Virus record (IMG/VR): IMGVR_UViG_2703718818_000015
Coordinates: 1 to 13,111 of that record
Origin: a virus
Lineage: Duplodnaviria; Heunggongvirae; Uroviricota; Caudoviricetes
Length of the DNA: 13,111 bases
Strand: one strand, 5' to 3'
This document shows positions 1 to 13,111 of this stretch, piece by piece; position 1 is the first letter of the stretch; the number at the start of each line of letters is the position of its first letter. Made by a program: the position numbers and the translations under genes. A model generated the notes under the pieces. It was given only the letters and a program-made list of their open reading frames with translations. It was not told the DNA's origin and did no database searches.

Positions 1-1053
1 TTACGGGGTAATGCCAACCGTTGCCGCCACTTTGTCGCCACTTGGCAGCGTTGCCAGAGGATTGAAACGGAGCGCCGTTTCCAGATGATCCGGTGCCAGA
101 TGTGCGTAACGCATAGTCATTTTTATATCGTGGTGTCCGAGAATTTTTTGTAAGGCCAGAATGTTTCCACCCGACATCATGAAGTGCGCTGCAAACGTAT
201 GGCGCAGAACGTGTGTGAGTTGACCGCGAGGGAGCACGATAGACGTTTTTTCCATCACGGATAAAAATTGAAAATAGCAGTCTGTGAAGAAATTGAACCC
301 ATCGAGCGCCATGATCTCTTCGTAAAGCTCTTTACTGATAGGGATGCTTCTGTTTTTCTTCCCCTTCGTTCTGACAAAGGTAATTCGGTATTTGGTCACC
401 TGTGAGCGGGTAAGATTTACGGCTTCACGCCAGCGTGCGCCTGTGCTTAAGCATATCTTAACTACCAGTGCCAGAATTGGGTCCTGACGTTTGCAATCAG
501 CCAGCAATTCAACAATCTGCTCATGGGTAAGCCATGCCATCTCTTTTTCTGCGATGGTGAATTTTCGCATGTTCTCCAGTGGGTTCGGATACGACCATTC
601 GCCCAGACGGGATAGTTCGCTAAAAACACTACTTAGATAGCTTTGCTCCAGGTTAATGGTGACCGGGCTTGCTCCTTTCTTCCATTTCTCGCTGAAGTAG
701 ATCTCGCCTGTCAGGCGTTTATCTCGATAGTGGGCAAACATTTTAGAGGTGAGATCGGTTGCAAGAGGATTGCCCAGAGCGTCAACCATCAACAGCAATT
801 TGTCATAGACATGCTGCCCAGCTGTCAGAGATTTACCATGTAGTTTGAACCATAGTTCAACCACGTCTTTCAGTGTTCGACGATCCACTGATTCACCCAG
901 CCAGGGCTTTGCTTCGGCTTCTTCCATCGTGTGACGCTCAAAAGCCAGTGCTTCGCCTTTGGTGGCGAATTGTTTACGCACACGACGCCCACTTCGTCCG
1001 GCGGGGTAACATTCGCAAAGCCATTTCCCTGTGGTGAGTTTTCGTACTGCCAT
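1..1053 (-). CDS. int: Phage tyrosine integrase (P2/186 family), 350 aa
   Basis: 350-aa ORF with C-terminal tyrosine-recombinase pattern (...HVLRHTFAAHF...MRYAHL...). ATG at 1051-1053 is preceded on the minus strand by GGAGGG. Sits at the prophage end next to the repressor operon. Stop codon is at 1-3, so the CDS is complete. Confidence 0.9.
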   Translation of the reverse strand: MAVRKLTTGKWLCECYPAGRSGRRVRKQFATKGEALAFERHTMEEAEAKPWLGESVDRRTLKDVVELWFKLHGKSLTAGQHVYDKLLLMVDALGNPLATDLTSKMFAHYRDKRLTGEIYFSEKWKKGASPVTINLEQSYLSSVFSELSRLGEWSYPNPLENMRKFTIAEKEMAWLTHEQIVELLADCKRQDPILALVVKICLSTGARWREAVNLTRSQVTKYRITFVRTKGKKNRSIPISKELYEEIMALDGFNFFTDCYFQFLSVMEKTSIVLPRGQLTHVLRHTFAAHFMMSGGNILALQKILGHHDIKMTMRYAHLAPDHLETALRFNPLATLPSGDKVAATVGITP

Positions 1054-1058
1054 AAAAA

Positions 1059-1079
1059 ATGCCCTCCAGTGGAGAGCAT
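1059..1079 (-). promoter_or_regulatory. 21-bp imperfect palindrome/hairpin flanked by A6 and T5, overlapping the int Shine-Dalgarno; candidate terminator/attenuator or operator
   Basis: ATGCCCTCCAGTGGAGAGCAT pairs at 9 of 10 arm positions. Read on the minus strand the stem is followed by TTTTTT and then the int ATG. The GGAGGG SD lies inside the 3' arm. Confidence 0.4.
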
Positions 1080-1106
1080 TTTTACTGTATGTATAACCAG
1101 TGTCAA
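1078..1106 (-). promoter_or_regulatory. Putative sigma70 promoter for int (-35 TTGACA, 16-17 bp spacer, A/T-rich -10)
   Basis: The minus-strand reading of 1101-1106 is a perfect TTGACA. A TAAAAA/AAAAAT -10-like hexamer lies 16-17 bp downstream (plus-strand 1078-1084). Hexamer match only, no experimental support. Confidence 0.3.
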
Positions 1107-1131
1107 TGTATGATGCTTAAGGTTACATACA

Positions 1132-1503
1132 TCATAAGTACCGATATGATTGCGGGGCCGTTATGTTATCACCTAATGAACTTAGATGAAGTGGTTGGTC
1201 ATAGATTTTTAGATTACCAATTTCTATAGCAAAGGCCTTTTCTTTGCTATGAAAATATGAGTCAAAAAATTGTTTACTGATACCCGCGTATTGGCTTGTT
1301 TTTTCCCATACAATACTTGGCTTGTCTTCTATAACATCTGCAATGTCAAATTCAGCAACAACTTTACCGACAGGCATTGTTGAATAAATAACCACAGATT
1401 TTACATCCGGTTTTTTGAAAATTCCTTTTCGGAATTCAAATTTCTTTGTTCCATTAAGGATTTTTTCTACATGCTCTGGGTTAATTGACAATAATACTTT
1501 CAT
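1132..1503 (-). CDS. ASCH-domain (PUA-like fold) protein, ~123 aa; cargo gene 3
   Basis: ORF 1132-1515; likely ATG start at 1501-1503 (a TTG at 1513-1515 is the alternative). GxKxxExR signature of ASCH domains present (G-T-K-K-F-E-F-R, nt 1429-1452). Size and N-terminal KVLLSI...EKIL pattern are typical of stand-alone ASCH proteins. Start overlaps the 3' end of the upstream gene by 23 nt. Confidence 0.7.
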   Translation of the reverse strand: MKVLLSINPEHVEKILNGTKKFEFRKGIFKKPDVKSVVIYSTMPVGKVVAEFDIADVIEDKPSIVWEKTSQYAGISKQFFDSYFHSKEKAFAIEIGNLKIYDQPLHLSSLGDNITAPQSYRYL

Positions 1504-2551
1504 TGACGCCACCAAGTTTAATAATGCTATTAAACTGTTCGTTTGTTAACTTCATGATCCCCCAGTAAGCTCGCGGGGATAATCCTACTTCAGAAATAAG
1601 TTTAGCACGATTTAGTCTTTTGGGCAAAGCAAGGTTATATGTAAAGCTTATAATATATGGGTATTTTTTTGTTCTATAAAAACTTTTAAGCTCAGATTCT
1701 GTAAAAACAGAATATCTAGAACAGTAATTTAGAAATTCTTTCTCTGTAACGAAAGAGTTTATATTTCTAACTTTTTCTACTACACATAAAGAAGTAGCAA
1801 CAGAACGGTAATATGCAGGCCCTTGATTATCGGATGTTCGGTATATAACGATTATATCGTTTGGCTTCATTAATTCAACATCTGACATGCCACAAATATA
1901 TACTTTTCTAATGCTATTTGCATATGATACATCAGCAACAACGTCTGGTGACTCTGTAATTAATTTTGAGTCAGGGAATAAACGAGTATGAAATACGGGG
2001 TATATTGAAAGCAAGAATTTATTTTCACTGCCTCTGTTATTAATAAATGGATAATCTGACAGTATATCGCCCGTAAGAGCATTACTATTCATTTCTTTTA
2101 TTAGTACTCGCTCTACACCATTTTCAGATTCTTTTACTCCAATATCTATAAAGCCATAGATTTTGAATAGTCTAATTAAGTAGTCATGTTTTTCAAAAAC
2201 AGTCACATATATATTGTTAGCATTATTATCTAGAGCGTGATCGAATATTTTTTTTAAAAATCGTTGACCACGAAGAGTTCCTTTTGGATTAAATTTAAAT
2301 GTTCCAACTTTTAGATGAATACCATCAGGAATATTTGGTTTTGTATCTTCAATGATACCTACTTCTGTTTTTAGATACAAAAAACCATCAATTTTATTTT
2401 GTTCATCATAAAGGACATATGCATAATCATTTGATTTACATTTAGAATGGAACCAATCAATAAACCCATGAGCATAATCGGATTTTAAAGAGTCAAAAAA
2501 AACATCAGAAAAATCTACTTGATTAAAAGGTATGTATTTTAAGTTTTCCAT
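1481..2551 (-). CDS. Two-domain protein, 356 aa: N-terminal GNAT-like (acyl-CoA N-acyltransferase fold) region, C-terminal PUA/ASCH-like region; cargo gene 2
   Basis: ATG at 2549-2551 with AGGA ~10 nt upstream, 2 nt after the stop of the upstream gene. N-terminal ~145 aa shows GNAT-like pattern (...YVLYDEQNKIDGFLYLK... / ...NNIYVTVFEKHDYLIRLFKIYGF...). C-terminal ~170 aa has beta-rich PUA-like character (...KVYICGMSDVELMKPNDIIVIY...). Domain calls are by eye only. Confidence 0.65.
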   Translation of the reverse strand: MENLKYIPFNQVDFSDVFFDSLKSDYAHGFIDWFHSKCKSNDYAYVLYDEQNKIDGFLYLKTEVGIIEDTKPNIPDGIHLKVGTFKFNPKGTLRGQRFLKKIFDHALDNNANNIYVTVFEKHDYLIRLFKIYGFIDIGVKESENGVERVLIKEMNSNALTGDILSDYPFINNRGSENKFLLSIYPVFHTRLFPDSKLITESPDVVADVSYANSIRKVYICGMSDVELMKPNDIIVIYRTSDNQGPAYYRSVATSLCVVEKVRNINSFVTEKEFLNYCSRYSVFTESELKSFYRTKKYPYIISFTYNLALPKRLNRAKLISEVGLSPRAYWGIMKLTNEQFNSIIKLGGVNESIIVN

Positions 2552-2553
2552 GT

Positions 2554-3336
2554 TTACAATCCTATTTTAAAATCACATGATAAGCAAATTGATTTAGTTT
2601 TAGATATGACGGCGAGTGTTTTCCCCGGAGTTTGACAATTAGTACAAACATTCCAATTTTTCGGTTTTCCATCAATCTTATATATGTTGGCTAAAATATC
2701 ATCTAAAGGAAAAAATGTTTTCATCATGTCTATAATGCTTGCTGCATAGTTTTTCTTTGCCTCGGCTAATTTTTGTTCAGGCATGTTTTTATCATTTATC
2801 AAGCAATGAACCAGGTTATTAAGAGGCTCTTGATATATCTCCTCTCGAAAAATTAGAAATGCACTTAAAAAGTCTTTACGTATTTCTTTATTATTACTTT
2901 TACCTAAGTGAATTACTTTATTTCTTTCTTTGCGCAAAATATCATAAATTTCATTAAAGCGCGGTGAAAGATTTCGCCCACTGATACTTTGTGCTATTCT
3001 ATGTAGTTCGGTTGCGTCTAATGTTGAACATTCGAAAAAAGATTTGTTTTTATAGCAGTCTTTTACTTCTTTTAAAAGTAAATAAACACTATGCTCAGCA
3101 ATTATAGACTTTAGATATATTTCAGCAGAATTAAAGAGTATTACCAAGCCAGATTGAAAGAAACTCTCTTTTTCGGATATTAAGCGTTTCAGTCGTTGTT
3201 CTTCTGTTTCAGGTTGAGCTGGGGCTTGCAATAACTCAATGTCAGAATAAAAGTGTAAGTAGAATGTTTTAATGAAAAACTCAAGGTTCCTTTTGGCATA
3301 AAGAAGCATCTCTTCATTGTTAGGAAGGTCTGTCAT
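2554..3336 (-). CDS. HEPN-like protein with C-terminal C4 zinc ribbon, 260 aa; cargo gene 1 (putative RNase-type effector)
   Basis: ATG at 3334-3336 directly abuts the cI stop (3337-3339), with AAGGA 7 nt upstream. R-N-K-V-I-H (residues 138-143, nt 2908-2925) matches the HEPN Rx4-6H motif in a helical context. C-terminus has CxxC-x16-CxxC (C231, C234, C251, C254). Very AT-rich coding sequence. Confidence 0.65.
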   Translation of the reverse strand: MTDLPNNEEMLLYAKRNLEFFIKTFYLHFYSDIELLQAPAQPETEEQRLKRLISEKESFFQSGLVILFNSAEIYLKSIIAEHSVYLLLKEVKDCYKNKSFFECSTLDATELHRIAQSISGRNLSPRFNEIYDILRKERNKVIHLGKSNNKEIRKDFLSAFLIFREEIYQEPLNNLVHCLINDKNMPEQKLAEAKKNYAASIIDMMKTFFPLDDILANIYKIDGKPKNWNVCTNCQTPGKTLAVISKTKSICLSCDFKIGL

Positions 3337-4293
3337 TTAAATATCCTTATATATACCAAAACATTTTGCTATTACATTAATATCCGCTAATAGACATTCA
3401 AAAGTTGTACTTTCATTAGATACTTTTACTTTTGCAATTGGAATTCTGGTTAGATCTCTAACACTAAATTTTCCTTCGATTTCAACTAACCATTTTCCAT
3501 CGGTTACTTCATCAAATGCTTTGTCTGCAAGATATACATTTCCTTCATCTACTATAGATATGGGTTTTTTCACCTTGCTGGGTAACATGGTTTTATCAAA
3601 AGGGAGATAATTTGTATCAAACAACATACCATTTATAACTTTTTTCCGTGTGATAGCAATAATATCGCTCTTAGCGTCTTCAAAGACAGGACCATTACCG
3701 GTTGTTAGCCACATTAATGAAGCTCCGGTTTCAAGTGCGCACTGGATGATCCAATCAGCTGGAAAGGTATCTCTCATGTAACGATTGGCTAATGTGCTTT
3801 TTGAAACACCAATGTGATCCGCTAGAGCTTGCCTTGTCTTAAATCCATAGGCGATAACTATTCGCTCGATTGCCGCTTTTCCTCCTTGATTAACCTCAAT
3901 GAGGCTCTCGTTCTTTCGGTGAGTATTGTTCTCATTTGGGGATTTTGTGTCTAAAGTGAGAGAATGAATCTCCTTACCATCTTTATGGTGGTTCTGTTCT
4001 GTATTATGTGTGACAGCCTCTACTGTGTTATCGGTACCAAATGCCAACCATTCAACCGACACGCCAGTTTCCATGCTGCAGATTATGACCCAGTCGGCAG
4101 GGAAGGTATCACGAGCATATCTGTTCGCCATTGTGCTTTGGGATATCCCTAAGTGGTTACAGAATGCTTGACGTGAAGTGAAGCCATAAGCTTTCAAAAT
4201 TCGGTCAATGACCTGTTGTCCTCCACGATTCTGCATGATTACAGTTTTCATTGCATCATCAACATGGCGAAATGTGATTTTGTGTGTTGACAT
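3337..4293 (-). CDS. cI: Phage 186-type CI immunity repressor with duplicated N-terminal HTH domain, 318 aa
   Basis: Residues ~141-318 resemble 186 CI (HTH N-domain then oligomerisation C-domain). Residues 28-87 are an internal repeat of residues 141-200, roughly 60% identical by eye (both contain ...AYGF..RQA...G.S.ST.ANRY.RDTFPADW.I.C..ETG...WL). ATG at 4291-4293. Divergent from apl. Confidence 0.8.
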   Translation of the reverse strand: MSTHKITFRHVDDAMKTVIMQNRGGQQVIDRILKAYGFTSRQAFCNHLGISQSTMANRYARDTFPADWVIICSMETGVSVEWLAFGTDNTVEAVTHNTEQNHHKDGKEIHSLTLDTKSPNENNTHRKNESLIEVNQGGKAAIERIVIAYGFKTRQALADHIGVSKSTLANRYMRDTFPADWIIQCALETGASLMWLTTGNGPVFEDAKSDIIAITRKKVINGMLFDTNYLPFDKTMLPSKVKKPISIVDEGNVYLADKAFDEVTDGKWLVEIEGKFSVRDLTRIPIAKVKVSNESTTFECLLADINVIAKCFGIYKDI

Positions 4294-4381
4294 ATCCGTT
4301 TTGCGATCCTATTCTCCGATTTGTGAAGTTGAAGTCACGATTAAAACCTGCTTATCACAAGACAATAGGAGATGTTGCATC
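4294..4381. promoter_or_regulatory. cI/apl divergent switch region (expected location of lytic/lysogenic promoters and operators)
   Basis: 88-bp gap between divergent cI and apl start codons. Contains apl SD AGGAG (4366-4370) and a tandem GAAGTT/GAAGTC repeat (4325-4336). Promoter hexamers could not be assigned confidently. Confidence 0.4.
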
Positions 4382-4603
4382 ATGACCCCTAACATTTCAA
4401 TAACTCTGAATACGCCACACGTCACAATTGAGCGTTATAGCGAACTTACTGGTCTTTCGATCGACACAATCAACGATATGCTGGCTGATGGTCGCATCCC
4501 TCGGCATCGTCTCCGTAAAGACAAGAAAAGAGAAAAGGTAATGATCAACCTTGCTGCTCTTACCGTTGATGCACTGACTGATTGCAATGTTGTATTCAAC
4601 TAG
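4382..4603 (+). CDS. apl: Apl/Cox-like excisionase and transcriptional regulator, 73 aa
   Basis: ATG at 4382 with AGGAG 11 nt upstream. HTH-like segment ([25 protein letters not shown]). Sits between cI and cII as in phage 186. The longer ORF 4208-4603 has its 5' extension antisense inside cI and is rejected. Confidence 0.65.
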
Positions 4604-4635
4604 TTCCATTTTGAGATACATCAGGGATGTCGACT

Positions 4636-5145
4636 ATGTTTGATTACCAAGTTTCCAAACATCCACATTTTGATGAAGCCTGTCGTGCATTCGCATTGCG
4701 CCACAACCTGGTGCAACTGGCAGAACGTGCAGGCATGAATGTGCAGATTCTGCGGAACAAGCTGAACCCAGCTCAACCTCATTTATTAACCGCACCAGAA
4801 ATCTGGCTGCTTACCGATCTGACTGAAGATTCAACGCTGATAGATGGTTTTCTGGCACAGATTCACTGCCTGCCATGTGTACCGATTAATGAGGTAGCAA
4901 AAGAGAAACTGCCGCATTACGTCATGAGTGCAACCGCAGAGATCGGGCGTGTTGCTGCAGGTGCGGTATCTGGCGATGTAAAAACCAGTGCAGGTCGTCG
5001 TGATGCTATCAGCAGCATTAACTCTGTAACACGACTGATGGCGCTGGCTGCTGTTTCATTGCAGGCCCGTTTACAGGCTAACCCTGCGATGGCGAGTGCA
5101 GTTGATACCGTGACTGGCCTCGGCGCCTCATTCGGTTTGCTGTGA
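4636..5145 (+). CDS. cII: Phage 186 CII-type lysogeny establishment regulator, 169 aa
   Basis: Strong resemblance to remembered 186 CII ([21 protein letters not shown]...[17 protein letters not shown]...[27 protein letters not shown]...). ATG at 4636 with AGGGA 8 nt upstream; an in-frame ATG at 4627 is the alternative. Confidence 0.85.
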
Positions 5146-5152
5146 GGTACTT

Positions 5153-5449
5153 ATGCTGACGAAAGAACCATCATTTGCATCGCTGCTGGTAAAGCAAAGC
5201 CCGGCAATGCACTACGGTCACGGCTGGATCATGGGTGAGGATGGAAAACGCTGGCATCCATGTCATTCACAAGATGAATTGCTGTCTCAATTGACCACGA
5301 GGAAACGGAGAAAGTCAAAATGTATGCAGCGGAAAGTGAAGTGGTTTATCAGTTTCGTTACAGAGGGGAGAGTTATTCAGTACCTGAAGATGATTTGCTC
5401 TGTTGTTATCCGTCGTTGTCGGGCGATGGCAGTTACTTTTTCACGCTAA
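5153..5449 (+). CDS. Hypothetical early protein (98-aa ORF; C-terminal third overlaps the next ORF in another frame)
   Basis: ATG at 5153 with GAGG 5 nt upstream, immediately after the cII stop. The N-terminal ~55 aa look protein-like; the C-terminal part overlaps ORF 5320-5544. Confidence 0.4.
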   Translation: MLTKEPSFASLLVKQSPAMHYGHGWIMGEDGKRWHPCHSQDELLSQLTTRKRRKSKCMQRKVKWFISFVTEGRVIQYLKMICSVVIRRCRAMAVTFSR

Positions 5450-5544
5450 AAGATGGGACGTTTTTACGGGGAGAGCAGGTTAAAGAGACGATACGAAAAA
5501 ATGTATCTCCTCTTGAACGTTACCGTAATAACAAACAACGATAG
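5320..5544 (+). CDS. Hypothetical small early protein, 74 aa
   Basis: ATG at 5320 with GGAGAAAG upstream. Protein-like composition. Overlaps the 3' part of ORF 5153-5449 in a different frame. Confidence 0.45.
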   Translation: MYAAESEVVYQFRYRGESYSVPEDDLLCCYPSLSGDGSYFFTLKDGTFLRGEQVKETIRKNVSPLERYRNNKQR

Positions 5545-5566
5545 TTGCGTTTTGGGGATATGAATT

Positions 5567-5908
5567 ATGGCAATTAATGGCGCTGCGGCGACTGTTCCAT
5601 TAAGCCCCGGTGAACGCCTGAATGGACTTAATCACATTGCGGAGCTAAGGGCGAAAGTTTTTGGCCTGAATATTGAGTCAGAGCTTGAGCGGTTTATTAA
5701 AGATATGCGTGATCCACGGGATATCAATAATGAACAAAATAAACGGGCACTGGCTGCCATATTCTTTATGGCAAAAATTCCAGCTGAACGTCATAGCATC
5801 AGCATTAATGAGCTGACCACTGACGAAAAGCGGGAGCTGATTAAAGCAATGAATCATTTTCGTGCAGTGGTGAGCTTATTTCCCAGACGGCTAACCATGC
5901 CGAATTAA
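5567..5908 (+). CDS. Hypothetical phage early protein, 113 aa
   Basis: ATG at 5567 with GGGGA 7 nt upstream. Co-directional with the early operon. No motif recognised. Confidence 0.55.
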   Translation: MAINGAAATVPLSPGERLNGLNHIAELRAKVFGLNIESELERFIKDMRDPRDINNEQNKRALAAIFFMAKIPAERHSISINELTTDEKRELIKAMNHFRAVVSLFPRRLTMPN

Positions 5909-5975
5909 CCAACTAATGAAATTAATGGCGTAAACCCGCCGGGCATCCCTTTATCTAAATTCAGGAGAATTGATT

Positions 5976-6209
5976 ATGCGTAATATTGAAACCCTCACGA
6001 CTAAAACCGGACCGGATGACGCAGGGCTTAATATTTTACTGACAGAGGCTCGTCTGGAAGAACGCCGGGCAAGGGCTGAAGCAATGGCAGCTCGCCTTGA
6101 TAGCCTGGCGTGTCATATCTCATCCCGTCAGCTAAACCACGTGGAAGCGGCAGAACTGCTGCGTGTGACTGCTGAAGCAATCCAGAACGAAGCGCAGGAG
6201 ATCCACTAA
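5976..6209 (+). CDS. Hypothetical small helical protein, 77 aa
   Basis: ATG at 5976 with AGGAG 8 nt upstream (ORF-track start 5970 is a TTG). Stop TAA overlaps the next start (TAATG). Confidence 0.55.
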   Translation: MRNIETLTTKTGPDDAGLNILLTEARLEERRARAEAMAARLDSLACHISSRQLNHVEAAELLRVTAEAIQNEAQEIH

Positions 6210-6436
6210 TGGCTGATGCAATGGATCTCGTACAGCAGCGCGTTGAAGAAGAACGCCAGCGCCATATCCGTGCTGCCCGTGCCAAAACGCCGGGCGTGTC
6301 CCGCGTGCTTTGCGTTGAGTGTGAAGCGCCAATTCCGCCAGCACGCCGCCGTGCCATTCCGGGTGTGCAGCTTTGCATTACCTGTCAGGAAATCGCAGAG
6401 CTGAAAGGTAAACATTACAACGGAGGTGCTGTATGA
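6209..6436 (+). CDS. TraR/DksA-family C4 zinc-finger protein, 75 aa
   Basis: C-x2-C-x17-C-x2-C (C35, C38, C56, C59), the spacing characteristic of DksA/TraR zinc fingers. AGGAG 8 nt upstream. Stop overlaps the dam start (ATGA). Confidence 0.75.
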   Translation: MADAMDLVQQRVEEERQRHIRAARAKTPGVSRVLCVECEAPIPPARRRAIPGVQLCITCQEIAELKGKHYNGGAV

Positions 6437-7290
6437 GCACCATCCTGAAATGGGCGGGAAATAAAACCGCCGTAATGTCCGAACTGAAAAAACATCTTCC
6501 TGCTGGTCCGCGACTAGTTGAACCTTTCGCGGGTTCCTGTGCTGTGATGATGGAGACGGATTATCCCTGCTATCTGGTTGCGGATATTAATCCTGATTTA
6601 ATCAACCTCTATAAAAAGGTTGCCGCTGATTGTGAATCGTTTATATCTCGCGCCAAAGTTTTATTTGAGATCGCAAACAGGGAGGTGGCTTATTACAACA
6701 TAAGGCAGGAGTTTAATTACTCAACTGAAATTACTGATTTCATGAAAGCGGTATATTTCCTGTATCTCAATCGTCACGGTTACCGTGGGTTATGTCGCTA
6801 TAACAAGAGCGGGCATTTCAACATTCCCTACGGTAATTATAAAAATCCGTATTTCCCTGAAAAAGAAATTCGCGCTTTTGCAGAAAAAGCCCAGCGAGCA
6901 ACGTTTATCTGCGCCAGCTTTGATGAAACGCTGGCGATGTTGAAGGCGGGGGATGTGGTGTATTGCGATCCGCCTTATGACGGTACGTTTTCCGGCTATC
7001 ACGCTGACGGCTTTACTGAAGATGACCAGTATCACCTGGCATCCGTTCTTGAACATCGGTCATCAGAAGGACATCCGGTCATTGTTTCTAACAGTGACAC
7101 ATCCCTGATCCGTTCGCTGTATCGCAATTTTACTCACCACTATATCAAGGTAAAACGCAGCATCGGCGTAGCAGCTGGTGAGAGTAAATCAGCAACAGAA
7201 ATCATTGCTGTTTCCGGGCCGCGCTGCTGGGTGGGATTTGATTATTCGCGTGGCGTGGATAGTTCTGCCGTGTACGGAGTACGTGCATGA
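6433..7290 (+). CDS. dam: Dam-family DNA adenine (N6) methyltransferase, GATC-type, 285 aa
   Basis: Close resemblance to E. coli Dam over the whole length (LKWAGNK SAM motif, LVEPF.G, ADIN.DLI.LY, FLYLNR.GY.GLCRYN, catalytic DPPY). GGAGG SD 7 nt upstream. Confidence 0.9.
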
Positions 7291-8333
7291 GCCATGCCGA
7301 TATGAGCAACTGCTGCGGCTTTAACGAGGCTGCCGCATCGTTCTCATGGAACAGCCCGAAAAAGGCCATTAACCCTTATCTGGACCCGGCGGAAGTTGCG
7401 CCGGTTTCTGCGCTTTCAAACCTGATCACTCTGTACGCTGCCGATAACGAGCAGGAACAACTGCGCCGCGAGGCACTGAGTGATCAGGTCTGGGAGCGTT
7501 ATTTCTTTAATGAATCCCGTGATCCTGTCCAACGCGAAATAGAGCAGGATAAGCTCATTAGCCGGGCAAAGTTGGCGCATGAGCAGCAGCGTTTTAACCC
7601 GGACATGGTCATTCTGGCAGACGTCAGCGCCCAGCCCTCCCATATCAGCAAGCCGCTGATGCAACGTATTGAATACTTCAGCAGCCTGGGCAGGCCAAAG
7701 GCTTATTCCCGCTATTTACGTGAGACGATTAAGCCATGTCTGGAACGACTGGAGCATGTACGCGACAGCCAGCTATCTGCATCTTTTCGTTTTATGGCAA
7801 GCCATGTAGGGCTGGACGGCCTGCTGATTCTGCCTGAAATGAGTCAGGATCAGGTGAAACGCCTGTCTACCCTTGTCGCTGCGCATATGAGCATGTGCCT
7901 TGATGCAGCTTGTGGTGATTTGTATGCCACCGATGACGTTAAGCCGGAAGAAATCCGCAAGACATGGGAAAAGGTGGCAGCGGAAACCCTGCGTCTGGAT
8001 GTCATCCCGCCTGCGTTTGAGCAACTCCGTCGGAAAAGAAACCGCCGTAAACCCGTGCCCTATGAACTCATTCCGGGTTCGCTGGCGCGTATGTTGTGCG
8101 CCGACTGGTGGTACCGGAAATTATGGAAAATGCGTTGCGAATGGCGGGAAGAGCAGTTGCGTGCTGTCTGCCTGGTCAGCAAAAAAGCATCTCCCTATGT
8201 CAGCTATGAAGCCGTGATGCATAAACGTGAGCAGCGCCGCAAGTCACTGGAGTTTTTCCGTTCTCATGAACTGGTGAACGAAGAGGGCGACACGCTGGAT
8301 ATGGAAGACGTGGTATCAGTGCAGCGCGGGTGA
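7287..8333 (+). pseudogene. A: Replication initiation gene A, N-terminal ~348-aa fragment (3' half deleted)
   Basis: Position after dam, as the replication gene in P2/186. C-terminal region resembles the remembered P2 gpA mid-region (...WWY.KL......W.E..L.AV..V.K..SPY.S..A....R.....LEF...). Full-length gpA is roughly twice this size, and the ORF is followed 46 nt later by tail gene U. Confidence 0.6.
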
Positions 8334-8379
8334 AGGCAAAAGCCAGGAGTAACTACAGCGATCAGGGGGGATACGACGC

Positions 8380-8850
8380 ATGATGATGGTGCTGGGATTG
8401 TACGTGGTGCCGTATCAGGAGCTGCAGTATCAACGCAGCTGGCGACATGCGGCAAACAGCCGGGTAAACCGACGTCCGTCCACGCAGTTTCTGGGACCGG
8501 ACAACGACATGCTGACGCTTTCCGGTGTTCTTATGCCGGAGATAACAGGTGGCAGGCTGTCGTTGCTGGCACTGGAGCAGATGGCAGAACAGGGGAAAGC
8601 ATGGCCCCTGATTGAAGGCAGCGGCACGATTTATGGCATGTATGTGATTGAGGGACTGAATCAGACTAAAACGGAGTTTTTCCGCGACGGTATGCCGCGC
8701 CGGATTGAGTTCACCCTGTCGCTCAAACGGGTGGATGAATCCCTGTCCGATATGTTCGGTGATCTCAGTGCGCAGCTGAATAATCTGCAGGGAACGGCAA
8801 CATCTGCCTTAAGCGATATCAGTAAAACGGTGGGAGGGCTTCTGTCGTGA
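8380..8850 (+). CDS. U: P2-type tail protein U, 156 aa
   Basis: Resembles remembered P2 gpU (MML.LG...; ...LSGVL.PE.TGG.L...L....AE.G.AWPL..G.G.IYGMYVI...F...G.PR.I.FTLSL.RVDESL). Stop overlaps the start of D (GTGA). Confidence 0.85.
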   Translation: MMMVLGLYVVPYQELQYQRSWRHAANSRVNRRPSTQFLGPDNDMLTLSGVLMPEITGGRLSLLALEQMAEQGKAWPLIEGSGTIYGMYVIEGLNQTKTEFFRDGMPRRIEFTLSLKRVDESLSDMFGDLSAQLNNLQGTATSALSDISKTVGGLLS

Positions 8851-9947
8851 ATTTCAGCTCTGAACTGCTTAACAAAGGCAACAAAACTCCGGCATTCAGC
8901 ATCAGTATTGAAGGCAGGGATATCACCACTGTGCTGGACAACCGCCTGATGGGGCTTACGCTGACGGATAACCGGGGCTTTGAAGCGGACCAGCTTGATC
9001 TGGAGCTGGACGACGCTGACGGAAAAATCGTGCTGCCGCGCCGTGGTGCGGTCATTACGCTGGCGCTGGGCTGGAAGGGGCAGCCGCTTTTCCCGAAAGG
9101 GGCATTCACGGTGGACGAGATTGAACACACTGGCGCACCGGACCGCCTGACTATCCGGGCGCGAAGTGCTGATTTTCGGGAAACGCTGAATACCCGCCGT
9201 GAAAAGTCGTGGCACAAGACCACGGTCGGGGAAGTGGTGAAGGAAATAGCCGCGCGGCACAAACTGAAGATGGCACTGGGTAAAGACTTGTCGGATAAAC
9301 CCGTGGAGCATATAGACCAGACCAATGAGAGTGACGCCAGTTTTTTGATGCGGCTGGCGCGCCAGTACGGTGCTATTGCGTCGGTGAAAAATGGCAATCT
9401 GTTATTCATCCGACAGGGACAGGGTAAAAGTGCCAGCGGTAAACCACTGCCGGTGATCACTATCACACGTAAGGACGGCGACAGTCACCGCTTTACCTTG
9501 GCAGATCGCGGAGCCTATACGGGCGTAATTGCCAGTTGGTTGCATACCCGCGAACCCGCGAAGAAAGAAAGCACAACGGTGAAGCGTAAGCGCAGGACTA
9601 AGAATCAGAAGAAAGAGCCGGAAGCGAAGCAGGGCGATTACCTGGTGGGTACGGATGAAAACGTGCTGGTACTTAATCGCACTTATGCCAACCGGAGCAA
9701 CGCTGAACGGGCAGCGAAAATGCAGTGGGAACGCCTGCAACGCGGCGTTGCGTCATTCTCGCTACAACTGGCGGAAGGGCGGGCAGATCTCTACACGGAA
9801 ATGCCTGTGAAGGTCAGTGGCTTTAAACAGCCGATAGATGATGCGGAATGGACCATTACGACTCTGACGCATACCGTCAGCCCGGATAATGGTTTTACGA
9901 CCAGTCTGGAGCTTGAAGTGAGGATTGATGATTTCGAAATGGAATGA
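8847..9947 (+). CDS. D: P2-type tail protein D, 366 aa
   Basis: Resembles remembered P2 gpD (TPAF.....G.DIT..L..RLM.LT.TDNRGFEADQLD.EL.DADG...LP.RGAV...). GTG start at 8847 with GGGAGGG ~10 nt upstream. Immediately precedes ogr as in P2. Confidence 0.85.
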   Translation: MNFSSELLNKGNKTPAFSISIEGRDITTVLDNRLMGLTLTDNRGFEADQLDLELDDADGKIVLPRRGAVITLALGWKGQPLFPKGAFTVDEIEHTGAPDRLTIRARSADFRETLNTRREKSWHKTTVGEVVKEIAARHKLKMALGKDLSDKPVEHIDQTNESDASFLMRLARQYGAIASVKNGNLLFIRQGQGKSASGKPLPVITITRKDGDSHRFTLADRGAYTGVIASWLHTREPAKKESTTVKRKRRTKNQKKEPEAKQGDYLVGTDENVLVLNRTYANRSNAERAAKMQWERLQRGVASFSLQLAEGRADLYTEMPVKVSGFKQPIDDAEWTITTLTHTVSPDNGFTTSLELEVRIDDFEME

Positions 9948-10037
9948 TTCTTCGCAATGGAGAACTTTTAAGTTTGCAAAATGGAATAATGCGGTATCAT
10001 TATTGTGAATTTAGCAAAAATGGGGAGAACTCGAAAA

Positions 10038-10256
10038 ATGATGATTTGCCCACTGTGTGGAAGTGCCGCCCATACTCGCAGCAGTTTTCAGGTATCTTCA
10101 TTGACCAAAGAGCGTTACAACCAGTGCCAGAATATTAACTGCAGCCATACTTTTGTAACCCATGAAACTTTTGTTCGTTCGATTGCAACGCCAAAAGAGT
10201 CAAATCCGGTTCAGCCGCATCCAATGAAATCAGGACAGGTGGCGCTCTCTCTTTGA
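10038..10256 (+). CDS. ogr: Ogr/Delta-family zinc-finger late-gene activator, 72 aa
   Basis: CPLC...C.N.NC zinc-finger arrangement and length matching P2 Ogr (72 aa). ATG at 10038 with GGGGAG 10 nt upstream. The longer ORF-track start (10005) is a GTG and is rejected. Confidence 0.85.
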   Translation: MMICPLCGSAAHTRSSFQVSSLTKERYNQCQNINCSHTFVTHETFVRSIATPKESNPVQPHPMKSGQVALSL

Positions 10257-10336
10257 CGCTGCCGCCATTTTGTCGCCATCGTTAAAAAACAGTGCTTCTA
10301 ACGTCATGATTTTAAAAGGCATAAACTTCAGGCAAC

Positions 10337-10379
10337 AAAAAACCCATCAACCTTGAACCGAAATGGCGGGGTTGATGGG
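10337..10379 (-). terminator. Rho-independent terminator, minus-strand sense; probable ybjL terminator
   Basis: 10-bp perfect inverted repeat CCCATCAACC (10343-10352) / GGTTGATGGG (10370-10379). On the minus strand the stem is followed by TTTTTT (complement of 10337-10342). Lies 113 nt downstream of the ybjL stop. Confidence 0.5.
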
Positions 10380-10491
10380 CTCCACAAAATGGGGACATCA
10401 AAGAAAAGCAGTGGCACTAATTAAGACTGATGCCCTGCGGAAAAGTTCTGCGGTTGTGCAAAAAAATTTCATTTTCAGGGCAACTTCAGTT

Positions 10492-12177
10492 TTATCCTAA
10501 TCCTGGCCATACCATGACGATGATTGTCCCTGCCAGCGTCAGCAGGACGTTGGCGATTGCATAGGTGCCCGCATAGCCCAGCGCCGGGATGTTACTGCGA
10601 GCTGTATCACTGATGATCTCCATTGCCGGCGCGCAGGTACGTGCGCCCATCATTGCGCCGAACAACAGCGCGCGGTTCATTCGCAATACATAAGCACCGA
10701 ACAAGAAACAGATAACCACGGGCACCAGACTGACAATCAATCCGGCAATCAACATCTGACCGCCAATCGCGCCCAGGCCGTTATTAATACCGCTACCGGC
10801 GCTCAGACCAACGCCTGCCATAAACACCATCAAGCCGAACTCTTTCACCATGCTTAATGCACCCTGCGGAATGTAACCGAAGGTCGGGTGGTTAGCACGC
10901 ATAAAGCCCAGCATAATTCCGGCGAATAACAACCCGGCAGCGTTCCCCATGCCGAAACTGAATGTGCTGAACTGGAAGGTGATCATCCCGATCATCAGCC
11001 CAATAACAAAGAAGGCGCAGAATGCCAGCAGGTCAGTGACCTGGCTGTGAATCGAGATAAAGCCGATGCGATCGGCGATGGTTTTTACGCGGCGGGCATC
11101 GCCGCTGACTTGTAAAACGTCACCTTTGTTAAGCACGACGTTGTCATCTATCGGCATCTCAATCTGGCTACGAATGACGCGGTTAAGGAAGCAACCGTGA
11201 TCGGTCAACTTCAGTTGTGCGAGACGTTTACCTACAGCGTTATGGTTTTTAACGACCACTTCTTCAGTGACGATACGCATGTCGAGAAGGTCACGATCGA
11301 AAACTTCTTTACCGTTACGGAAGCTGGGATCGAGTCGGGCATGGGCGTCGGGATAGCCTACCAACGCTATTTCATCGCCCATTTGTAGCACGGCATCACC
11401 GTCTGGATTTGCCAGAATCCCGTTACGTCGAATACGTTCAATGTAGCAGCCGGTTTGTCGATAAATACCCAGTTCACGCAGATTTTTGCCGTCGGTCCAG
11501 GCCACCAGTTCCGGGCCGACGCGATAGGCGCGGATCACCGGTAAATAAACCTTACGGTTGGCATCAGTGTCCAGGCCACGTTCGCGGGCGATTTGCTGGG
11601 CGCTGGTCTGTAAGTCCTGATGCTGCAATTTCGGCAAGTAACGCGCACCAACAATCAAACTCACCAGACCGATTAAATAGGTTAAGGCATACCCGAGGCT
11701 CAGATTATCCAGTGCCAGTGAGAGCTGCCTGCTTTCCATGCCGGAATGACGCAGTGTATCGCCAGCACCGACCAGAACCGGTGTCGACGTCATAGAGCCT
11801 GCTAACATACCGGCCGTCAGGCCAATATCCCAGCCAAACAGCTTACCTAACCCTAAGGCGATCACCAGCGCACTGCCAACCATCACCAGTGCTAACATTA
11901 GGTAATTTTTCCCATCGCGAAAAAAAATGGAAAAAAAGTTCGGTCCGGCTTCGACCCCGACGCAGAAAATAAACAGCATAAAGCCAAGATTAAGCGCATC
12001 GGTGTTAATGCTGAAATGTTGTTGGCCTAATAACAGCGATACGACTAAAACGCCAATGGAATTACCCAGTTGGATCGAACCAAGTCGTAACTTTCCGAGA
12101 CATAGCCCAAGCGCGAGGACCACAAATAATAACAGAATGTAATTCCCATTTAACAATTCGGCGACGTTTATATTCAC
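10492..12177 (-). CDS. ybjL: Putative AAE-family transporter YbjL (membrane protein with two TrkA-C/RCK_C-like domains), 561 aa
   Basis: Recognised as E. coli YbjL ([18 protein letters not shown]...). GTG start at 12175-12177. Hydrophobic N- and C-terminal halves flank a soluble central region. Confidence 0.95.
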
Positions 12178-12446
12178 GGAGGCTAACTTCTTGTTTACTA
12201 GTAAGCTGTTGAAAGAAATGGTAATTTACGATAATGTTTTTTACCAGAATTCAGGGCGCAGATTCATTCAGCGCACCTAAACGATAGTAAAGCAACAATA
12301 TATTTTACTAGTGTAATCACATTAGGTATCAACGGCTATATGAATTGCGTTGGCCTATATTAGCATGGAATGCGAAGCGGCTTTATCTTACTGAACGCCA
12401 CACTGGCGAAAAATGTGTTCGATAGACGCAGTGTCAGGAGGAACGA

Positions 12447-12824
12447 GTGAAACATAAACAACGTTGGGCGGGGGCAATCTGCTGTTTTGTCCTCTTCATT
12501 GTGGTGTGCCTTTTTCTGGCGACGCACATGAAAGGCGCTTTTCGGGCTGCCGGGCATCCTGAAATCGGCTTGCTATTTTTCATTCTTCCTGGAGCAGTCG
12601 CCAGCTTCTTTTCACAGCGTAGAGAAGTCCTGAAACCTCTGTTTGGCGCAATGCTGGCGGCACCCTGTTCGATGCTCATTATGCGGCTGTTTTTTTCACC
12701 GACGCGCTCATTCTGGCAAGAGCTGGCATGGTTACTAAGCGCGGTGTTCTGGTGTGCGCTGGGGGCACTGTGTTTCTTATTTATCAGTAGTTTGTTTAAA
12801 CCACAGCACAGAAAAAATCAGTAA
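12447..12824 (+). CDS. ybjM: Inner membrane protein YbjM, 125 aa
   Basis: Recognised as E. coli YbjM (MKHKQRWAGAICCFVLFIVV...). GTG start with AGGAGG 6 nt upstream. Strongly hydrophobic. Confidence 0.9.
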   Translation: MKHKQRWAGAICCFVLFIVVCLFLATHMKGAFRAAGHPEIGLLFFILPGAVASFFSQRREVLKPLFGAMLAAPCSMLIMRLFFSPTRSFWQELAWLLSAVFWCALGALCFLFISSLFKPQHRKNQ

Positions 12825-12843
12825 AGCCCTCAACGCGAGGGCT
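12825..12843. terminator. Bidirectional intrinsic terminator between convergent ybjM and grxA
   Basis: Perfect 7-bp stem AGCCCTC / GAGGGCT with 5-nt loop, directly after the ybjM stop. On the minus strand the stem is followed by TTTACTG. Confidence 0.6.
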
Positions 12844-12853
12844 TGTCAGACGA

Positions 12854-13111
12854 TCAGGCGTCCAGATTTTCTTTCACCCATGCAGCAAAATCGGTATAGC
12901 CGCCGATATGTTGCTGATCGACAAAAATCTGCGGCACGGTTTCTACGGGTTTACCTGCCTTTTGTTGTAGATCTTCTTTAGTGATCCCTTCCGCACGAAT
13001 ATCTACATACTGATACTGAAAATCATCGCGTTCATTGCTCAATTTCTCAGCCAGATCTTTTGCACGCACACAGTAAGGGCAACCCGAACGACCAAAAATA
13101 ACGGTTTGCAT
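12854..13111 (-). CDS. grxA: Glutaredoxin 1, 85 aa
   Basis: Recognised as E. coli GrxA with CPYC active site (MQTVIFGRSGCPYCVRAKDLAEKL...). The start codon is the last three bases of the window, so the CDS is complete. Confidence 0.95.
   Translation of the reverse strand: MQTVIFGRSGCPYCVRAKDLAEKLSNERDDFQYQYVDIRAEGITKEDLQQKAGKPVETVPQIFVDQQHIGGYTDFAAWVKENLDA

Follow-up and report, generated by a model that had tools for sequence, protein, structure and literature searches.

Where a GNAT acetyltransferase is fused to an EVE domain, an ASCH gene nearly always comes with it, and often an AAA_17 ATPase as well (Bell, Wolf & Koonin 2020, PMC7641849). These GNAT-EVE + ASCH operons are common in prophages of beta- and gammaproteobacteria; they are predicted toxin-antitoxin systems that still await experimental characterization (PMC7641849). 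Aminoacyl-tRNA has been proposed as the target of the GNAT-EVE family by the precedent of GNAT toxins, since type II GNAT toxins acetylate aminoacyl-tRNA to toxic effect, and a PIN RNase is often fused to GNAT-EVE, with the processing of acetylated RNA suggested as its job (PMC7641849 and work cited there). We analyzed a 13,111-nucleotide (nt) stretch of DNA (hereafter the window; positions 1 to 13,111 of IMG/VR virus record IMGVR_UViG_2703718818_000015), which is a 186/P2-type Escherichia coli prophage remnant adjoining ybjL and grxA, and examined a cassette of three genes lying between its CI repressor and integrase genes. Two of them encode a 356-amino-acid (aa) GNAT-EVE protein and a 123-aa ASCH protein, homologs of proteins annotated elsewhere as GevT and GevA, and the gene upstream of these encodes a 260-aa HEPN protein with a C-terminal zinc ribbon. 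We are confident that the trio represents a GevTA-type module with an obligate HEPN partner. The new elements here are the HEPN-zinc-ribbon gene and the fact that it is obligately linked to the pair; the core pair itself is already catalogued.

The GevT/GevA pair and its HEPN partner

The identity of the core pair is well supported by profile searches. The 356-aa protein matches the PADLOC profile PDC-M11A (PDLC04419) over its full length (E 2.4e-130) as well as PHROG 6345 (8e-155), and the smaller protein, read as 123 or 127 aa, matches PDC-M11B (PDLC04425; E 4.9e-48) and PHROG 3136 (9e-53). The 123-aa protein also matches Pfam ASCH (E 3e-5, above the gathering score). Both PDC-M11 profiles are therefore represented by adjacent A and B genes, which overlap by 23 nt. 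In Escherichia phage PhiR47_2 (PV340567, a 2025 record), the corresponding genes are annotated as 'GevT toxin' and 'GevA antitoxin' and lie directly downstream of cI; the proteins studied here are 57% identical to that GevT over 358 aa and 61% identical to that GevA over 123 aa. Homologs of the pair occur in eight lambdoid coliphage records, and the PhiR47 phages are part of the Laub laboratory temperate-phage panel. In phage lambda itself, the position downstream of cI is occupied by rexAB.

The domain architecture agrees with the GNAT-EVE + ASCH class: the larger protein joins a GNAT domain to a C-terminal EVE/PUA-like domain, and ASCH is encoded by its own gene within the operon. Structure prediction of the 356-aa protein (predicted local distance difference test score 87.7) confirmed the GNAT plus PUA-like architecture, the PUA-like reader domain being 190 aa long. 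No substitution is seen among 24 homologs in the acetyl-CoA loop (R94 G95 R97 F98 K100 K101) or the Y132-G-F motif, which suggests that GevT is likely to be an active acetyltransferase. For the 123-aa protein, the closest solved structure is the Zymomonas ASCH protein (5guq/5gus, E 4e-8). Across 40 sequences, K24, E27 and R29 of its GxKxxExR motif are invariant, G22 is at least 90% conserved, and the C-terminal PQS is likewise invariant. Both the C-terminal domain of GevT and GevA carry PUA-type reader folds resembling that Zymomonas protein; however, a direct BLASTP comparison between the two was marginal (E 0.085), so their relatedness rests on fold and not on sequence. The GevT family comprises 2613 protein clusters, and an ASCH gene accompanies GevT at all 32 species-level GTDB loci. 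GevT homologs with 26-45% identity were also seen in distant hosts, in AY319521 (Salmonella SopEPhi), NC_005355 (Lactobacillus Lj965) and NC_002628 (Methanothermobacter psiM100). In psiM100, an archaeal virus, the homolog lies inside an annotated 'inserted fragment IFa'.

The 260-aa protein is far less familiar. It has no significant match in Pfam, NCBIfam or PHROGs, and its only family match is a weak one to the PADLOC DUF3644 HEPN model (2.4e-5). A sequence search of the PDB with the family profile returned nothing meaningful, tblastn for the HEPN gene found no match in 50,697 phage records, and Foldseek returned nothing at E<=0.001 among viral structures (BFVD). The family forms 24 clusters at 90% identity, all from Enterobacterales apart from one from Photobacterium, and only three full-length members are present among 1.84 billion 50%-identity representatives; beyond these are about 350 distant HEPN proteins of ~300 aa with weak likeness to HEC-08, PDC-S64 and DUF3644. 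Within the family, a R138-N-x-V-I-H143 motif, an LFNSAEIY helix and the cysteines C231, C234, C251 and C254 are kept in 18 homologs, and R138, N139 and H143 are invariant in those sequences down to 36% identity. The protein has the all-alpha fold and Rx4-6H motif that characterize the HEPN superfamily. From the conserved motif and the four cysteines, it is a HEPN domain with an intact Rx4H motif followed by a C-terminal zinc ribbon. DefensePredictor Table S10 gives its cluster the label 'Predicted novel defense gene', with PD-T4-2_B as the nearest remote match at low probability.

The HEPN gene is tied to the module by its linkage. At 18 of the 18 loci read, the HEPN gene is followed by a GevT homolog after a spacer of 0-22 nt; these loci cover 10 of the 24 clusters of the 260-aa family (8 by look-up, E. 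coli from annotated records and locus L012 from the GTDB scan). A same-strand ASCH gene follows at all of them except Photobacterium, where ASCH is on the opposite strand. The order cI-trio-int recurs in 186-type prophages of E. coli, Hafnia, Pectobacterium, Yersinia ruckeri and Enterobacter. The trio is also found in phage-free settings, in a Morganella islet between udp and metE and beside a type VI secretion cluster in Dickeya. In Enterobacter bugandensis it lies in a chromosomal islet that has also been seen with an adjoining P4-like satellite. Identity of the 260-aa protein across genera ranges from 35 to 80%, with the Photobacterium locus at 35%, and the identities of the three proteins follow nearly the same rank order across loci. 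The fixed order, varied settings and parallel identities indicate that the trio moves as one unit and is not a chance assembly of hotspot neighbors; a unit conserved across genera in this way also establishes that its genes are real. The HEPN gene was never seen without GevT, but the converse fails: it is present at 1 of the 32 species-level GevT loci.

One strain bears on how the proteins depend on each other. In E. coli MFDS1006657 (L002:12428-13499), the annotation gives GevT a frameshift next to intact HEPN and ASCH genes, and a split tblastn match agrees with it. Either the presumed toxin has truly been inactivated or the frameshift is an artifact of sequencing. Taken at face value, the frameshift suggests that the HEPN protein does not constitutively kill cells lacking full-length GevT.

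An earlier reading of the DNA, made from sequence only, had recognized a HEPN-like Rx4H protein with a C4 zinc ribbon, a GNAT plus PUA-like fusion and a small ASCH protein, and all of these domain calls proved correct. Its view that the content resembles a conflict or defense module is likewise upheld. It had also called the trio undescribed and impossible to place in a named system. This holds for the 260-aa HEPN gene, but not for the 356-aa/123-aa pair, which is covered by PDC-M11A/B, by the GNAT-EVE + ASCH class and by the GevT/GevA annotation. The PADLOC search which that reading had proposed gave a similarly divided answer, as two of the three proteins match the candidate system PDC-M11 and the 260-aa protein yields weak matches only. 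No account of the three-gene form came to light beyond one trace, the 260-aa cluster in DefensePredictor Table S10. A literature search found no paper on GevT, GevA, GevTA, PhiR47 or the three RefSeq accessions, and the GevT/GevA module is not treated in 2026 papers on BREX and on a domain-centric approach or in the main text of DefensePredictor.

GNAT-EVE/ASCH modules are widespread, occurring in phages of E. coli, Salmonella, Lactobacillus and a methanogen, and have been predicted conflict systems since 2013; no mechanistic study of them was found in the accessible literature. A natural three-gene E. coli version in the well-understood lysogenic operon of a 186-type prophage offers a tractable entry point. 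It raises the questions of what GevT acetylates, which ligands the two PUA-type readers bind and whether there is any coupling between acetylation and RNA cleavage. A defense or toxin-antitoxin moron (accessory gene set) downstream of a prophage cI is expected biology; the obligate HEPN partner and the swappable slot described below provide the testable handle. Should the trio prove to be an ordinary toxin-antitoxin moron, the result would still be a useful annotation for the hypothetical-protein family WP_000130914.

Prophage setting and the upstream slot

The open reading frame (ORF) layout confirms three co-directional minus-strand genes of 260, 356 and 123 codons between cI and int (Table 1), as the sequence-only reading had reported. 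From left to right, the window carries int, the cassette, cI, an apl-like gene, cII, fil, a DUF5347 gene, a Dam methylase gene, gpA (cut at 348 aa), gpU, gpD and ogr, followed by the host gene ybjL. The ATG of the 260-aa gene directly follows the cI stop codon (0 nt), 2 nt separate the 260-aa and 356-aa genes, and the 356-aa and 123-aa genes share the overlap mentioned above. The ATG of the 123-aa gene at 1503 is the RefSeq start, and its frame is open to a TTG at 1515 (1132-1515, 127 aa). No terminator-like site was found on the minus strand between cI and int. This reads as a single leftward, lysogenic transcription unit with cI as its first gene, running through the cassette; given the tight spacing, the one overlap and the lack of a terminator-like site, the trio is probably co-made with the repressor in the lysogen.

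Table 1. Coordinates of the features discussed. Positions without a locus label are those of the window.
Feature	Position	Strand	Remarks
Tyrosine integrase	1..1053	-	Downstream of the cassette, last gene; Pfam Int_N 3e-32, Phage_integrase 7e-22
ASCH-int spacer	1054..1131	-	First ~60 nt are conserved prophage backbone; promoter-like site 1106-1078
123-aa ASCH protein, GevA homolog	1132..1503	-	PADLOC PDC-M11B, PHROG 3136, WP_000866326.1
356-aa GNAT acetyltransferase + EVE/PUA-like domain fusion, GevT homolog	1481..2551	-	PADLOC PDC-M11A, PHROG 6345, WP_000429329.1
260-aa HEPN + C-terminal C4 zinc-ribbon protein	2554..3336	-	RefSeq WP_000130914.1; new third component
186-type CI repressor	3337..4293	-	Pfam Phage_CI_repr 9.6e-58 (2 stretches), Phage_CI_C 7e-31
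AT-rich block	1114..3650	.	Three genes plus the part of cI encoding the C-terminal domain; ~30-32% guanine plus cytosine
357-379-aa family in the HEPN slot	L011:3888-4964, L013:3835-4974, L015:3903-4976		
Distant members of the 357-379-aa family	L050:4001-5047, L051:4001-5131, L052:4001-5227		

Base composition sets the cassette apart from the rest of the prophage. Guanine plus cytosine (GC) content is 31.6% over 1054-3336, whereas int reaches 48.9% and the remainder of the prophage 50.2%. The hand counts given previously for two short samples were exact (23.3% at 2161-2220, 48.3% at 481-540), and the argument drawn from them, that the cassette was acquired separately, holds. A low GC content arising as an artifact was rejected, as it is uniform across 2.5 kb and conserved in 28 genomes. 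However, the AT-rich block extends past the end first proposed for it, because GC is 29.9% at 3337-3650, where the C-terminal domain of CI is encoded. The left edge of the variable block lies near 1114, since the ~60 nt next to int are part of the backbone shared with other prophages. The repressor here has two Phage_CI_repr helix-turn-helix domains and one CI_C domain, in an ORF of 318 aa (299 aa from the later RefSeq start); the CI proteins beside the same trio in other genera, and in the BL21 and HS prophages, are mostly 186-207 aa with one helix-turn-helix. This CI with two helix-turn-helix domains, together with a cI C-terminal region as AT-rich as the cassette, suggests that the block was acquired by recombination inside cI.

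The cassette behaves as an optional occupant of a fixed position. At >=99% identity, the whole of it is present in 28 of 5426 complete E. coli genomes, and the 260-aa family (WP_000130914) is found in about 0.5% of complete E. coli genomes. The 60-nt int-proximal backbone stub is carried by 676 E. coli genomes, 648 of which have the stub only, so that the variable block occupies this fixed backbone position in 28 of the 676. In the prophages of BL21 and HS, which occupy the same rcdA|ybjL site, the gene of a 189-aa CI is separated from int by ~390 bp that hold one 63-aa ORF. The earlier statement that cI and int are neighbors as a rule is thus approximately right. In P2-like phages, the integrase-primase interval, which includes the cI-int slot, is a minor defense hotspot with 8% of defense systems (PMC13586616).

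The window is indeed a prophage remnant, as had been stated, with gpA truncated at 348 aa and followed by gpU, gpD and ogr. A deletion joint lies at 7287-8850, where the 348 aa that remain of gpA cover positions 1-152 of the 321 in the Pfam GPA profile and gpU, gpD and ogr start within 50 nt; compared to relatives that retain them, the prophage has lost ~20 kb of genes for replication, lysis and morphogenesis. The earlier reading had pointed to the retention of the cassette in a degraded prophage. This carries no special weight as evidence, because the same cassette is also found in 186-type prophages with full-length gpA, portal and terminase genes, so its presence in a remnant here is incidental. 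Cargo at the gpA-portal hotspot differs among cassette carriers: A37 has a retron St85-type reverse transcriptase (L003:24367-25296) and MFDS1006657 a small cluster ending in a SecB-like chaperone (L002:21424-22631). One prophage can thus carry at least two accessory blocks.

The slot between cI and GevT can be filled by other genes. In a neighbor-joining tree, the HEPN-linked GevTs fall in one Enterobacterales clade, except for the more distant GevT of Photobacterium. The same clade includes GevTs of Brenneria, Raoultella and Scandinavium prophages with an unrelated 357-379-aa protein in exactly the place that HEPN takes between cI and GevT. This second family comprises 51 clusters, has a hydrophobic C-terminus and gave no Pfam or PADLOC match. 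Its distant members adjoin short stand-alone GNATs and ASCH genes, in one case with an AAA_17 ATPase as well, and GNAT/ASCH pairs seem to have in this family a further regular third partner. Other occupants of the upstream slot are AAA_17 ATPases (L028, L040) and coiled-coil proteins of 506-523 aa. The picture is that of a conserved GNAT(-EVE)/ASCH core with a replaceable upstream component, and partner-swapping at a fixed slot beside a conserved core bears on how defense systems diversify.

Several GevT/ASCH and related loci also have conflict genes as neighbors. These are KwaB (Kiwa) directly upstream (L038:3945-4916), Abi_2 (L051:7912-8937), a SymE toxin with RhuM (L008:8502-9915) and the type VI secretion genes Hcp/VgrG/Rhs (L007:1-4139), and they are consistent with placement in defense islands.

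Proposed action and alternative explanations

Taken as a whole, the reading that we somewhat favor is that the trio is a three-gene variant of the GNAT-EVE/ASCH (GevT/GevA, PDC-M11) class which is expressed with cI and blocks translation during superinfection. Its parts differ in strength. An anti-phage function is probable, RNA or translation as the target stands at about even odds, and the particular order of events given here is doubtful. In the undisturbed lysogen, GevA would restrain GevT, either by binding it or by competing for, or reversing, its action at the same nucleic-acid ligand; because the targeting domain of GevT and GevA share one fold, competition or reversal at a common ligand would be favored. 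A superinfecting phage would cause this restraint to be lost. GevT, with acetyl-CoA, would then acetylate an RNA-linked target selected by its EVE domain, most likely aminoacyl-tRNA, as for TacT and AtaT. The HEPN-zinc-ribbon protein may act as a metal-independent RNase on tRNA or mRNA, serving as a second effector or as an in-trans processor of acetylated RNA in the manner of PIN in PIN-GNAT-EVE. The outcome would be translation arrest leading to abortive infection or superinfection exclusion, from which the prophage would benefit. We infer a defense or abortive-infection role for the trio in this sense, and for it the prophage HEPN RNases HepS and DARNA/PD-T7-3, which follow such a logic, and the HEPN RNase of PD-T4-2 serve as analogies, not as systems to which it belongs.

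Several points weigh against this interpretation. The 'toxin' and 'antitoxin' labels are GenBank annotation and provide the sole support for toxicity of GevT and its neutralization by GevA. PDC-M11 is a candidate and not a validated system, the only paper found to name it merely lists it in a genome, and the searchable literature yielded no experimental result on GevTA, PDC-M11 or the HEPN protein. RNase activity of the 260-aa protein and its substrate are predictions from sequence, and contact with GevT or GevA is hypothetical. A different role was proposed by Bell et al. for phage-borne GNAT-EVE proteins, that of helping the phage against host restriction (PMC7641849). The strain with a frameshifted GevT fits some versions of the model and not others. 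The arrangement of the antitoxin candidate is also not constant, as ASCH is on the strand opposite GevT in Photobacterium, Vibrio and Shewanella (L004, L029, L027, L030, L032, L039). In at least two of these loci (L004:6001-10129, L029:5001-8658) it ends a convergent operon of an X-family protein, a short GNAT and ASCH, with the result that a single ASCH gene is flanked by two GNAT genes. A simple two-gene toxin-antitoxin logic may therefore be too simple.

It is unlikely, though the least so of the alternatives, that the trio is a plain addiction module which stabilizes a prophage, satellite or islet by post-segregational killing and has no anti-phage role. The pair is annotated as toxin and antitoxin and was predicted to be a toxin-antitoxin system (PMC7641849). 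Moreover, its persistence in a degraded remnant and in small islets without phage genes is typical of selfish toxin-antitoxin loci. On the other hand, the trio lies in the lysogenic operon at the place which rexAB takes in lambda, defense genes recur as its neighbors, and the rapid swapping of the upstream partner is the pattern of phage-host conflict genes. Addiction and defense are also not exclusive, since many toxin-antitoxin systems do both jobs.

The remaining explanations are improbable. The cassette might consist of two independent systems that only share a hotspot, a single-gene HEPN-zinc-ribbon defense beside GevTA. Single-protein HEPN defenses do exist (HepS, DARNA), GevTA is a two-gene unit elsewhere, the HEPN gene is missing from 31 of the 32 species loci and from all phage records, and a GevT frameshift is tolerated with HEPN intact. 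However, the 260-aa family was never seen away from GevT and keeps its order and 0-22 nt spacer at 18 loci in 10 clusters; this linkage holds in at least four unrelated genomic settings and down to 35% identity, whereas mere hotspot neighbors would separate outside the hotspot. A further proposal, to which we give just as little credence, is nucleic-acid modification or counter-defense, in which acetylation of a DNA or RNA base by GNAT-EVE would label or shield the genome of phage or host. ASCH would be the reader or eraser of that label, and HEPN would clear RNA without or with it. EVE and ASCH are readers of modified bases, and a role of this type was proposed by Iyer 2013 (as cited in Bell 2020, PMC7641849); the reader-writer architecture was verified here. 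Yet expression with the repressor and not with the lytic genes better fits protection of the host and prophage than of an infecting genome, and the HEPN and PIN partners point to RNA.

One more reading is speculative. GNAT(-EVE)/ASCH could form a modular 'writer-reader' immune core, in which GNAT writes an acetyl mark on nucleic acid, ASCH reads, competes for or erases it, and the pair gates interchangeable effectors in the upstream slot. The candidate effectors, named just as tentatively, would be the HEPN-zinc-ribbon RNase, the 357-379-aa protein with its possibly membrane-spanning C-terminus, the fused PIN domain and the AAA_17 ATPases. If such a core were real, it would amount to an acetylation-gated RNase defense without characterized precedent.

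Comparison with known systems

Other HEPN-containing defenses resemble the cassette in part. PD-T4-2, a validated two-gene E. coli defense consisting of a GNAT and a RiboL-PSP-HEPN protein, is one of the HEPN-containing antiviral systems and likewise pairs GNAT with HEPN. To our knowledge, it has no EVE domain and no ASCH partner. Membership in PD-T4-2 was rejected, as no PD-T4-2 model was among the PADLOC matches at E<=1 for any of the three proteins. HepS (Gifsy-1), DARNA/PD-T7-3 and HEPN-MNT (HepT/MntA) have no sequence-level relationship to the 260-aa protein; compared to these, the C4 zinc ribbon is unique to the 260-aa family, and the partners here are GNAT-EVE and ASCH. Membership in HEPN-MNT was also rejected, because the locus has no nucleotidyltransferase and the neighbors are cI, GNAT-EVE and ASCH.

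The type II GNAT toxins TacT, AtaT, ItaT and KacT share with GevT the GNAT fold, the conserved acetyl-CoA loop and the Tyr-Gly-Phe motif. They are, however, single-domain proteins of ~170 aa paired with RHH/DUF1778 antitoxins, whereas GevT has the 190-aa PUA-like domain and an ASCH partner. A TacT-type (TacAT/AtaRT) assignment was rejected on both counts, the partner (ASCH, not RHH/DUF1778) and the architecture being wrong. For GevA, the Zymomonas mobilis ASCH protein (PDB 5GUQ/5GUS) is the closest structure, but identity is low.

The closest relative is GevT/GevA of PhiR47_2 (PV340567), which shares full-length homologs, the overlapping gene order, the place just downstream of a prophage cI and the folds. 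It differs in being without the upstream HEPN-zinc-ribbon gene and in its carrier, which is lambdoid there and 186/P2-type here. The PIN-GNAT-EVE + ASCH (+AAA_17) operons are also close to the trio, as they likewise combine an RNase-type domain, GNAT-EVE and a separate ASCH gene, with optional accessory genes upstream. In those operons PIN is fused at the N-terminus and the loci are associated with type I restriction-modification systems, whereas here the HEPN domain is a separate polypeptide with a zinc ribbon, found in prophages and small islets.

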